Made by a program: the position numbers and the translations under genes
Shown here: one piece after another, positions 1,791 to 19,643 of the stretch
Numbering within the stretch: position 1 is the first letter of the stretch
Layout of the letters: each line of letters opens with the position of its first letter
Origin: a virus
Lineage: Duplodnaviria > Heunggongvirae > Uroviricota > Caudoviricetes
Strand: one strand, 5' to 3'
Length of the DNA: 64,000 bases
Virus record (IMG/VR): IMGVR_UViG_2799112923_000002
Location: 64,001-128,000 of that record
Notes under the pieces: model-generated
Database searches by the model: none
What the model saw: only the letters and a program-made list of their open reading frames with translations
Told to the model about the DNA's origin: nothing

Positions 1791-3678
1791 AACTGCATTT
1801 GTTTACGATATTGAAGTATTTCCTAATTTTTTTAGTGTCGCTATTAAAAATACAGAGTCTGGCAATATTCGAACATTTCAAATTTCTGAATGAAAAAACG
1901 AAATTGGAGATATTGTTCAACTTTTTTTAAATCAAAAAATATATTGAGTTGGATATAATTCAATTCATTATGACGCTCCTATTATTTCTTATATCATAAT
2001 CAATTATAGGAAATTAGTGTCACAACCTGTTTGATTAACTAATCAAGAATTAAAACAGTTTAGTGATTTGATTATTGAATCTAAAACATCAGCATCATGA
2101 AAAAAATATAAATATGCAAATCTATTTTCAAATCTTGATTTATTAACTATGATGTTTGCAGAGAAATTAAGAGTTTCTTTGAAAGCGTTACAAGTTACAA
2201 TGGAATATAGAAATGTTGAAGAATATGATGGTGATTTTAACAGTTTTCTTCCTAAAGCTGATGTAGAGAAATTAATTAATTATAATATTAATGATATCTT
2301 ATCTACTGAAGAACTTTTAAACCGTTTAAAAGGTGAAATTGAGCTTCGATTAGGAATTGAACAAAATCTTGGAGTAAATGTTTTAAATCAAGATGGTGTT
2401 AATTTAGGTGTTGAAGTTATTAAAAATAGTTATCTTAGAGATACAGGAAAATCTTGATATGAAATAAAAGATTTAAGAAGTCCTTGTCATGAAGTAGATC
2501 TTAAAGACATTTATTTCAATTTTATAAAATTTGAAACACCTTTGTTTCAAGAATTTTATAAGGAACTTTATAATACACATATTAATCTTGATGCAGAAAA
2601 ACTTAAAAAGACTGCAGATAGATGAAAGAAAACACTTCGTGTTGGAGATCTCGAAATAACATATTCATTAGGTGGAATTCATACTAAAAATAAACCAGAA
2701 GTTTTTAGAACTGATGACTTTTGAATCATTATTGATTCAGATTGTGCATCAATGTATCCAAGTGCAATTATAAATTTTGGATTGTATCCTCAACATCTTG
2801 GTCCTGAATTTTTAAAGACTTATAAGAAAATTAGAGAGGATAGAATTAAAGCCAAACATAATGGTGATAAAGTTATGAATCAGACTTATAAGTTAGCACT
2901 TAATGGTATTTCTGGAATGTTACAAAATGAATATAGTTGATGTTATGATCCTAAGACTGTTATTAAATTACGATTAAATTGTCAATTAATGCTTTTAATG
3001 CTTACTGAAAAATTAATTAATTTAGGTTGCCGTATTGGACAATTAAATACAGATGGTATTATGTATATGGCTCCTAGAGATAAATTTGATGAAATAATGC
3101 AGGCATGTAAAGAATGGGAATCTGTAACTCAATTTCAATTAGAACATGAATATTTTGAAGTATTCTATCAATACGCTGTAAATGATTATATTGGAGTATA
3201 TAAAGGTTATTCTGAAACACATGATCCAAAACTTATTAAAACTAAAGGTATGTTTATTCAGGAACCTATTCTTGGAAAAGGTATGGCTCCACAAATTATT
3301 GCAGAAGCTTTAGTTCAATATTTTGTGAATAAAGTTCCAGTTAATGATACGTTATATGCTTGTAACGATATTAAAAAGTTTTTGACTTTTCAAAAAGTAA
3401 GTCGAGATTTTAGTGTTGAATATAATGGACAACTTTTGACGCATATAAATCGATATTATATGTCTATAAATGGACATAAAATTCGTAAATGTAAAGTTGA
3501 TACTAATGGAAAACGTTACGATTATGAAGATATGTGTGCAACATCTGGTGTTACATTATTTAATGTATTACAAGATATTTCTCCTAAAGACGCTAATATA
3601 AACTATAGTTGATATCGTAATGAAATTTATAAAATAATTTATGCTATAGAAGATAGCTTAAATCCTACATTATTTTAA
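1774..3678 (+). CDS. polB: Family B DNA polymerase, 634 aa (TGA=Trp)
   Basis: Exonuclease motifs YDIEVFPN and WVGYN..HYD; polymerase motifs DSDCASMYPS, YKLALNGISG and LNTDG. Nine in-frame TGA codons join three track fragments. Confidence 0.93.
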
Positions 3679-4592
3679 TGAAATTAGATTTAAACTTATT
3701 AAAAAGGGCGTTATCAATAAATCATCCATCTAAAAAAGAATGGCCAATGTTAACATTTATTATAAACGAGTGTTATAAAATTGGCGGATTGGATTTTGAA
3801 ATGGATGGCTATTGTAACATATTTATTACTAAAAACACATCTAATCCTGAATTCTTTCCTTGTGTAATTGCGCATACAGATCATGTTGTATCTTGTGATC
3901 ATAAGGAAGTTAGAATTAAGAATAATAAAATTTGGGGTAGAGATAAAATGACTGGAAAACAAACTGCTTTGGGTGCAGATGATACAAACGGTATATGTTG
4001 CGCGATACAGTTATTAAAAGAAATTCCAGATTTAAAAGTATGTTTTACAACTGAAGAAGAAGTTGGATTTTTAGGAGCAGATTATGCTTCTGATAATATA
4101 GATTTCTTCTACAATGTTTCTTATATGATTCAGGCAGATAGGCATGGTAGTTCTGATTTAATCACATATACAAATGGAATATATTCTGCTTCTGAATATT
4201 GGTTACAGGAAGTATCCGGAATAATGGCAGCTTTTCAATATAAAGAGGCTTATGGACTTGGTACAGATGTAGGAGTTCTTTCAGAACAATTACAATTATC
4301 TGGAGTAAATATTTCATGTGGCTACTATGATGAACATAAAGTAACGGAATATACTATTATTCCTGAACTTCAGAACTGTCTGAATTTTATGGAAGCTATT
4401 TTAAAAACAGTACCTATAGATAAACAATATACGATTAAAATCGATTATAAAGCTTATAATAGGTATTTTGATTATGAACCAGAGATGGAACCAAATGCTA
4501 AATTTGATGACTATCCAAGAGATTACGATTATATACCTTGTGACCATTGCGAGGAATATGATTGTATGAATTGTAAAAAATATCCACTATAA
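3678..4592 (+). CDS. Zn-dependent M20/M28-type peptidase
   Basis: Motifs AHTDHV, GADD, TEEEVG, QADRHG, TDVG and NISCGYYDEH; 304 aa. Confidence 0.85.
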   Translation: MKLDLNLLKRALSINHPSKKEWPMLTFIINECYKIGGLDFEMDGYCNIFITKNTSNPEFFPCVIAHTDHVVSCDHKEVRIKNNKIWGRDKMTGKQTALGADDTNGICCAIQLLKEIPDLKVCFTTEEEVGFLGADYASDNIDFFYNVSYMIQADRHGSSDLITYTNGIYSASEYWLQEVSGIMAAFQYKEAYGLGTDVGVLSEQLQLSGVNISCGYYDEHKVTEYTIIPELQNCLNFMEAILKTVPIDKQYTIKIDYKAYNRYFDYEPEMEPNAKFDDYPRDYDYIPCDHCEEYDCMNCKKYPL

Positions 4593-5810
4593 TGGATAGA
4601 ACTGAACGACAAAAACTTTGTTTAAAGCGATGACTAAATTGTGGAGGGAAAGCAAGCATTGAGGCTTGCACTGGGTTTCGGAAAAACTAGAGTCGCTTTA
4701 AACCTTATAGACGCTTTTACTAGTAAAAATCCAGAAGCACAAACATTAGTTGTAGTTCCAACACAAATTCTTAAAGATCAATGAATTCAACAAATTGATG
4801 AAAGAGGATTAGGACTAAATGCCAGAGTGGAAATTATTAATTCTGTTATTAAATTGGATTGGACTTGTGATCTTCTTATAATAGATGAGGCACATATTGC
4901 TGCAGCTGAACAGATGGTACAAGTTTTTAATAAAGTTTGTTACAAATTTATTCTTTGTTTAACTGGTACAATGGAACGTCTTGATATGAGACATCTTCTT
5001 ATTGAAAAGTTTGCTCCAATTTGTGATAGAGTTACAATACAAGAAGCTGAACAAAATGGTTGAGTTTCTCCACATAAAGAATATTTGGTTTTACTTAATG
5101 TAGATCTTACAGAATATAATGAATGAACTCGTAAATTTAATGCGTATTTCTCATATTTTAATTTTGATTTCGCTTTAGCTATGAAAGTTGCAACTGATCC
5201 AATTGCTCGTAATCAATGAGCGAAACGGATGGGATTGGATTCTAAAAAAACTGCTGCAATTGCATTGGATTGGATGAGAATGATGAAAAAACGAAAAGAT
5301 TTTGTTATGAATCATCCTAAAAAGATTGAAATTGCAAGAAAGATTTTGGAAGCTCGCCCAGATAAAAAAGCAATTACTTTTTCTGCTACAATTAATACAG
5401 CAGAACAAATAGGTATTGGTGAAACTATTCATTCTCAAAAGAAAGCAAAAGAAAATAAAGAAATCTTAGATCGATTTAATGCACAGGAATGTGGTGTATT
5501 AAATACTTCTAAATCCGCAGATCAAGGATTGGATTTAAAAGGTATAAATCTAGAAGTCATTTTACATACAGATTCATCTAAAATTCGTAAAGTACAAAGA
5601 GTAGGACGAAGTATTAGATATGAATATGGAAAAACTACTGAAATTTTTACATTGGTTATTGCTGGAACACAAGAAGTAAAATGATTTACTAATAGTAAAG
5701 CATCTAAAGTAACCACAATTACTGAAGAACAGTTAGATCGAGTTTTAGCTGGAGAAAACATTGAAACTCGAGAAAGAAATTATTCCGAAAACCTAAAATT
5801 TAGATTTTAA
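4592..5810 (+). CDS. Superfamily 2 (DEAH) helicase, about 405 aa; needs a +1 frameshift at 4676-4679
   Basis: The N-terminus MDRTERQ...IEACTGF (frame of 4592) joins GKTRVA...LIIDEAH...LTGT...QRVGRSIR in the +1 frame. The zero frame stops at TAG 4688. Confidence 0.8.
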
Positions 5811-18923: not shown

Positions 18924-19643
18924 ATGGAAAAAATTTGTTCTGTTTGTGGTTGTTCTGTTGGAAATGGAACAGACCATGTATATAGATTCTCTGATGGAAA
19001 TCTATATTGTAAAAAACATTACTTACAGATGTATCGTCATGGTAAAATACTAGAAAGAACCATTTACGATAAAAACGAATACATTAAATATAATGATTAT
19101 GCTGAATGTATTTGTTACGATACAAAAGGTAACGAGAAAGGCAGAGTTAAAATAGATCTTGATAAGATCAACGACTTGCAAAATTATAAAATCTATATCC
19201 GTAACCAAAACGGAAAATTATATGCGGCTATATCGATTGATAATAAAAAGATATTATTGCATAGATATCTATTTGGAATTGTAAATGAAAAATATGATAT
19301 AGATAAAGTTGTTGATCATATTAACGGTGACTCCTTAGACAATAGATTGTGTAATTTGCGTCAATGTTCTCACTCACAAAATATGCAGAACATTCGTAAA
19401 ATAAACAAAATAATCGGAGTCGCACTAGGACCAAATAAAAACAAAAAATGAGTCGCTAGAATCATGAGTAATTATAAATCTATACACATTGGTACTTTTA
19501 ATACTAAAGAAGAAGCAGTTTATGCTAGACTTTTAAAAGAAAAAGAACTTTGTGGTGATTATGGCCCTAATAAAGATTTATTTTATTTATTAGATCAGTC
19601 CTCTCCAATAGAAGCTATTAAGCAAGCTTTAGAGGACGTGTAA
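18924..19643 (+). CDS. HNH homing endonuclease with N-terminal Zn finger and C-terminal AP2 domain, 239 aa
   Basis: CSVCG...CKKH; VDHINGDSLDNRLCNLRQ; KW(TGA)VARI...HIGTFNTKEEA. Confidence 0.9.

Follow-up and report, generated by a model that had tools for sequence, protein, structure and literature searches.

A single extra nucleotide interrupts the Walker A motif of the only copy of a replication helicase gene in a Caudoviricetes phage, and this break is real, conserved and probably recoded. The gene lies in a stretch of 64,000 nucleotides (positions 64,001 to 128,000 of IMG/VR record IMGVR_UViG_2799112923_000002), here called the window, whose numbering is used throughout and which is part of a complete phage genome of 166,911 bp with terminal repeats. 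As judged from sequence, the gene appears to be functional and to be decoded by a corrective +1 ribosomal frameshift at UUU_CGG, in which the tRNA of the Phe codon slips forward by one base; we assign this reading a probability of roughly 0.65, while some form of translational correction of the break seems very probable.

The helicase gene and its frame break

When the open reading frames (ORFs) were read again, the layout given in a preliminary description of this DNA was recovered exactly. The zero frame from the ATG at 4592 comprises 32 codons, requires TGA to be read as Trp at codon 14, and ends in ...A-C-T-G-F-R-K-N before the TAG at 4688-4690. The +1 frame is open from 4677 for 377 codons, up to the TAA at 5808-5810, and its product has Pfam matches to ResIII/DEAD and Helicase_C. 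Re-pairing from TTT (4676-4678) to TTC (4677-4679), just ahead of the CGG at 4679-4681, joins 28 and 377 residues into a product of 405 residues, which is the length of intact homologs, and restores the TGFGKT motif that is invariant in all 36 aligned intact homologs. The added base could equally be C4679 or a T within 4676-4678, two cases that are indistinguishable. The protein is an XPB/Rad25-like SF2 helicase, the 'SNF2' helicase of crAss-like phages, with Q motif, Walker A, DExH, motifs III-VI and two RecA domains all present, and its best solved relatives are archaeal XPB proteins (E 1e-25). The 28 residues ahead of the break are part of the helicase fold, since in an alignment they match the helix of the Q motif and the first strand of archaeal XPB (residues 96-120). 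The features of this region are listed below.

4592-4690, plus strand: zero-frame ORF of 32 codons, with TGA as Trp at codon 14, encoding the helicase N-terminus with the helix of the Q motif, the first beta strand and the beginning of Walker A (alignment to archaeal XPB, synonymous-biased change)
4676-4681, plus strand: predicted +1 shift site TTT_CGG, invariant in the window and in L003, L011, L260 and L133
4677-5810, plus strand: +1-frame ORF of 377 codons from Phe, the rest of the XPB/SNF2-type SF2 helicase (domain matches, XPB alignment)
4682-4683, plus strand: Gly^Lys junction of GFG^KT, the point of introns and of +1/+4/+5/+8/+10 stop-containing inserts in the DNA of relatives
4637-4678, plus strand: weak remnant of a 5' hairpin, inner 6-bp stem 4652-4657/4664-4669 (z -1.35, not significant here)
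4641-4661, plus strand: GTG at 4641 and TTG at 4659 of the +1 frame, which gene callers use as starts but which are judged spurious
4590-4594, plus strand: TAATG overlap between the stop of an upstream peptidase-like gene (3678-4592) and the helicase ATG
5226-5229, plus strand: internal control, a CGG-A in frame further along the helicase gene, with AAA before it, whose CGG must be read as a triplet

Is the break genuine? The 90% cluster of the window contains 13 proteins, drawn from several sources; the 12 whose sequence extends to the N-terminus all appear as gene calls starting in the +1 frame, and none is intact. The same extra base, for which a search in related genomes had been proposed, is present with its TTT_CGG context in the independent assemblies L003/L009, L011/L012, L260 and L133/L134, giving, with the window, five lineages separated by synonymous divergences (dS) of up to ~1. 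Among these five, the downstream frame evolves with a ratio of nonsynonymous to synonymous divergence (dN/dS) of 0.13-0.27 at dS 0.64-1.3 and without other stops. In the upstream zero-frame segment, change among carriers is mostly synonymous, with per-site differences of 0.015-0.16 at nonsynonymous (pN) versus 0.11-0.80 at synonymous positions (pS). Both halves of the helicase are thus under purifying selection. None of the 22 distinct insert-bearing genes, four of which end early at a contig end or a downstream intron, has a second lesion, and the complete genome contains just one copy of the gene. Because of this conservation, the low dN/dS and the single copy, an assembly error or an inactivating mutation, which the preliminary description had offered as an alternative, is effectively excluded. 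Intact close relatives had been named there as grounds for rejecting a frameshift; intact relatives do exist, though none in the window's own cluster, and this standard proved too strict.

Decoding at the predicted shift site

In the proposed mechanism, ribosomes would start at ATG 4592, where the overlap with the upstream stop codon suggests translational coupling, and would reach UUU, so that peptidyl-tRNA-Phe(GAA) occupies the P site. With the rare CGG in the A site, they would then pause, and a fraction would re-pair one base forward on UUC, continue with GGA AAA ACT and complete the normal 405-residue helicase, while unshifted ribosomes would stop at the TAG at 4688-4690 and release a 32-residue peptide.

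We infer that the shift is ribosomal and takes place at the Phe codon. The TTT_CGG hexamer is invariant across carriers, while variation is seen in the Thr codon, in the first Gly codon (GGG/GGC), in the base that follows CGG (A/T) and in how far away the zero-frame stop lies. As expected for +1 shifting of the UUU_CGN/UUU_Ynn type, the P-site UUU can re-pair to UUC and is invariant in five lineages, and the site is conserved between two frames that are both under purifying selection. In bacteria, UUU_Ynn is prone to +1 shifting, and the PA-X site of influenza A virus reads UUU_CGU (PMC5009743). CGG accounts for 36 of 1873 Arg codons (1.9%) in the ORFs of the genome. The phage encodes tRNA-Phe(GAA) and tRNA-Gly(UCC), and no tRNA-Arg was detected in its genome. 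A slip at the first Gly codon (GGG to GGT) was considered and ruled out: L133 has GGC before TTT, and therefore allows no Gly-to-Gly slip.

The count of in-frame TTT_CGG in the genome is uninformative on avoidance, with one occurrence, probably in a spurious ORF, versus 1.2 expected. Comparison with two complete relatives revealed no other frameshifted genes and no genome-wide recoding of CGG, although breaks common to all three genomes would escape it, and promoter and terminator scans yielded nothing above chance. A first, loose scan with a degenerate DNA pattern returned 109 stretches, taken as mostly chance, and tighter scans of viral contigs recovered only the contig of L003 and unrelated genes.

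An allelic series at a single codon pair

Odd N-termini among the homologs led to a series of alleles at the DNA level, all at the same codon pair. It comprises intact genes, the +1 type of the window, a second +1 type with TAA directly after Gly, inserts of +4, +5, +8 and +10, and introns; by redundant counts, 89 of the surveyed loci are intact and 28 carry short inserts. The +4, +5, +8 and +10 inserts all open with a stop codon right after the second Gly, and none of the short insert lengths is a multiple of three. The long inserts are three different group I-like introns of 1.1-1.2 kb, which sit exactly between Gly and Lys and contain GIY-YIG or LAGLIDADG-like endonucleases, the GIY-YIG type in L004 among them; the term group I-like is based solely on the U that precedes them, their terminal G, common core motifs and the endonuclease ORFs, and Rfam gave no group I intron match for them at either threshold. 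This insertion site of introns and homing endonucleases, together with the series of other frame-breaking inserts, is the key context that the preliminary description lacked.

All short frame-breaking inserts in the DNA-level survey lie at the Walker A codon pair, the sole exception being L240 (545-560), an isolated break near helicase codon 157 that resembles a 4-nucleotide duplication around a Gly codon and may be an error or another hop. Intron-like insertions also occur elsewhere in the helicase: at a second site near codon 312, in the motif V region (L168:3460-4883, L171:3440-4858, L177:2614-4108, L235 and L236), and at a third near codon 99 in L237. An ORF of 68-74 residues lies directly 3' of the helicase in the insert-bearing L127, L128, L130, L132, L133 and L135 and is missing from the window; the one such ORF tested had no PHROG match.

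A 5' hairpin is strong in the stop-containing alleles, with a mean z of -4.4 versus -1.0 in intact ones, as measured against synonymous shuffles (p 7e-6, uncorrected for kinship), and its stem shows compensatory changes, the count of which is inflated by kinship. It is also strong in L133, which carries the +1 TTT_CGG allele (z -4.6), whereas the window allele retains the weak remnant listed above. Strong hairpins upstream of Walker A occur also in the intact alleles L001 and L140 (z about -4) and in the intron allele L004; in the two intact alleles, the hairpin suggests reversion from an insert-bearing state.

The alleles appear to be mobile. In a phylogeny of the downstream protein, the allelic states are scattered among one another: switches between intact and disrupted number at least 21, those for the window's type 6, and the grouping of +1 carriers as a clade is rejected (approximately unbiased test, p 5e-8). 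Between L003 (+1) and L257 (intact), 45 differences fall in the first ~290 nucleotides and only 6 in the remaining ~900, a contrast that marks a recombination tract around the site. L144 (intact), L153 (+5) and L158 (intron) are near-identical genes.

What might maintain such alleles? The extra base, 3 nucleotides from the insertion site of the endonuclease-carrying introns, would spoil a homing or cleavage site and leave the invariant P-loop unchanged. The window allele would then be a 'savior indel' with compensatory frameshifting, a class for which there is precedent (PMC5009743), and one of a series whose other members may combine a stop codon and a 5' hairpin with slips or hops of the Gly tRNA over 1-10 nucleotides. 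A comparable effect is known from T4, where the insert of gene 60 blocks nicking by MobA (10.1101/2022.08.31.505936). That these alleles persist as protection of an invariant, endonuclease-targeted motif is suggested by the coinciding position and by the mosaicism; we regard it as possible, at slightly less than even odds. More tentative still is the wider proposal that one phage family repeatedly evolved, and swaps by recombination, graded tiny recoding inserts in one Walker A codon pair, which would confer immunity to homing endonucleases encoded in introns, the set ranging from a +1 Phe slip through a +1 Gly slip at a stop to stop hops of 4-10 nucleotides with a 5' hairpin, some of them landing on mismatched codons.

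Several observations weigh against a frameshift kept in place by homing endonucleases. The window allele has no significant stimulator, the 5' fold being weak (z -1.35) and the 3' fold unremarkable, and therefore the shift may be inefficient for the needs of a replication enzyme. No endonuclease gene adjoins the helicase here, no GIY-YIG or LAGLIDADG_3 match was found in the genome and the nearest HNH gene is 14 kb away, so that no driver of spread is visible in this genome. Four of the five carrier lineages have a near-identical N-terminal tract in common and are therefore not of independent origin. Lastly, remnants left by the decay of lost introns or of bypass cassettes, if simply tolerated, would look similar.

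Alternative explanations

The same protein would result without a slip in the P site if tRNA-Gly bound out of frame, or read four bases, at CGG-A/T. The insert is indeed a pyrimidine 5' of a GGA or GGT codon, the pattern of glass-sponge mitochondria (PMC5009743), and the phage carries tRNA-Gly(UCC); this tRNA, however, has a normal 7-base loop, the TTT before CGG is invariant, and the ORF set, some members of which are spurious, holds 11 in-frame CGG-A, including the one at 5226-5229 of the helicase itself, whose CGG must be read as a triplet. Moreover, the helicase is the sole frame-broken gene among ~100 in common with an intact relative, which leaves this explanation rather unlikely. Unlikely, too, is a frameshift selected as a regulator, which would throttle helicase output or sense the supply of Arg-tRNA(CCG). 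CGG is rare, the phage brings no tRNA-Arg, and any shift necessarily lowers output, but intact loci outnumber those with short inserts by 89 to 28 (redundant counts), intact, insert and intron states switch on near-identical backgrounds, and the triggers among the alleles (rare codon, TAA, TAG) are unrelated, quite unlike those of a sensor. Of the earlier suggestion of a programmed frameshift that throttles the helicase, the frameshift is thus favored by the invariance of TTT_CGG in five lineages, whereas the throttling is unsupported, given relatives that are mostly intact, one of them ~99% identical over the last 900 nucleotides.

Correction at the RNA level, through slippage of a phage RNA polymerase, editing, or excision in trans by an intron ribozyme, draws some appeal from the RNA polymerase that crAss-like phages encode, from the expression mechanisms of a new kind that passages of Yutin et al. 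suspect in the Zeta group (PMC7886860) and from the coincidence of break and intron sites. It is nevertheless improbable: the runs have just 3-4 bases, excision by one rule (U before, G at the end) cannot account for both the +1 and the +5 alleles, and the stop directly after Gly and the 5' hairpin of other alleles are signals of translation. Recoding would be dispensable altogether if a shortened helicase were made in the +1 frame from TTG 4659, or GTG 4641, still reading G-F-G-K-T; this frame runs without a stop through the 15 preceding codons, and the GGG of four carriers keeps the Gly. Such a protein would, however, be without the helix of the Q motif and would have Leu, Gln or Pro in place of the invariant Thr; L133, L142 and L143 have no such start, and it is the zero-frame segment that is conserved at the protein level, all of which makes an internal start very improbable. 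Least probable of all is the assembly error or pseudogene set aside above. A frame break at this motif would amount to a null mutation, yet it recurs in many independent assemblies under purifying selection over dS ~1, the insert-bearing genes are free of second lesions, and the breaks are confined to one site. Compared with these alternatives, the Phe slip at UUU_CGG remains our preferred reading.

The phage and its genome

This gut phage is crAss-like and fits the Zeta group by size, genetic code and replication block. As described for Zeta-group phages (Yutin et al. 2021, PMC7886860, relevant passages), the genome falls within 145-192 kb and its genes are continuous only if TGA is read as Trp, for which it encodes a tRNA with UCA anticodon; its replication block comprises PolB, the SNF2-type SF2 helicase, DnaB, an AAA ATPase and primase, and its relatives are rich in introns. 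The relevant passages of that paper give no account of a helicase frameshift or of a mechanism, but report unexplained motif-breaking frameshifts in Zeta RNA polymerase genes. At 27535-52786 on the minus strand, the window carries three very large ORFs (1624, 3544 and 3252 residues, with TGA as Trp), presumably the virion RNA polymerase block, which, unlike the disrupted Zeta genes of the literature, are uninterrupted here.

A free-standing HNH endonuclease gene at 18924-19643 is the sole homing-endonuclease-like match for the three families searched in the genome. Outside the window, a tRNA gene with CUA anticodon, a potential suppressor of TAG, lies at G000:C1:41394-41466 and is missing from two relatives checked; ~22 ORFs end in TAG in this otherwise TGA=Trp genome, and read-through of the zero-frame TAG at 4688 could occur. 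Also outside the window, a tRNA-like gene at G000:C1:31067-31143, directly 3' of tRNA-Leu(TAA), has an anticodon loop of abnormal size (6 bases). In G002, the genome of L140, ARAGORN finds a tRNA with UUA anticodon, a potential suppressor of TAA.

Significance and relation to known systems

In phages, a single-copy replication enzyme seldom depends on obligatory recoding within its catalytic motif, and only a few cases of natural bypassing are established. The allelic series, on nearly identical backgrounds, makes it testable how bypass elements such as that of T4 gene 60 originate from small indels, and whether small indels are selected as protection against homing endonucleases. If the wider proposal is true, ribosomal recoding would be a general strategy against homing, with natural intermediates between simple frameshifting and bypassing of the T4 type. 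The series also suggests a specific mechanism for the motif-breaking frameshifts of the Zeta crAss-like phages that have so far gone unexplained, and it shows that many database entries for this helicase have a wrong N-terminus. A literature search on crAss-like phages, with thin reach into subscription journals, found no direct report of the helicase frameshift.

How does the helicase compare with known cases of recoding? With influenza A PA-X, the UUU_CGN sites of amalgaviruses and bacterial UUU_Ynn sites such as that of YopN-TyeA (PMC5009743), it has in common UUU followed by a CGN codon, the +1 direction and the lack of an obvious stimulator. In those systems, however, the shift yields an extra, low-level product, whereas here it would be obligatory for the sole copy of a replication helicase, within Walker A and in a bacteriophage. 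The corrective +1 shifts in mitochondria of glass sponges and ants (PMC5009743) likewise restore a full-length protein by translation, after a single pyrimidine 5' of GGA has given CGG_A. Genome-wide recoding of the glass-sponge type would call for a CGG that is otherwise unused or always marks a shift and for a tRNA-Gly with an enlarged loop, whereas the present case is site-specific rather than genome-wide, has no enlarged-loop tRNA-Gly, and CGG-A is read normally elsewhere.

The closest parallel for the family is T4 gene 60 with MobA (10.1101/2022.08.31.505936; PMC5009743), in which a frame-breaking insert in a conserved motif of a replication enzyme is likewise tied to homing endonucleases; the sister alleles also resemble it in their Gly take-off codon, immediate stop codon and 5' stem-loop. 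In contrast, the window allele is an overlapping slip by 1 nucleotide and no bypass, has no adjacent stop, no significant 5' stem-loop (z -1.35) and no adjacent endonuclease, and the inserts measure 1-10 nucleotides versus 50 in T4. The endonucleases are found only within the relatives' introns at the same site, rather than in a cassette next to it. Matched, non-overlapping take-off and landing codons, as in bypassing, are seen in the +5 sister alleles only, the landing triplets of the +4, +8 and +10 alleles being mismatched at position 1, and the codon after take-off, the rare CGG in the window allele, is a stop in all other insert classes. By analogy, the window allele would act like +1 shifting of the PA-X type, while the family as a whole would behave like the bypassing of T4 gene 60.
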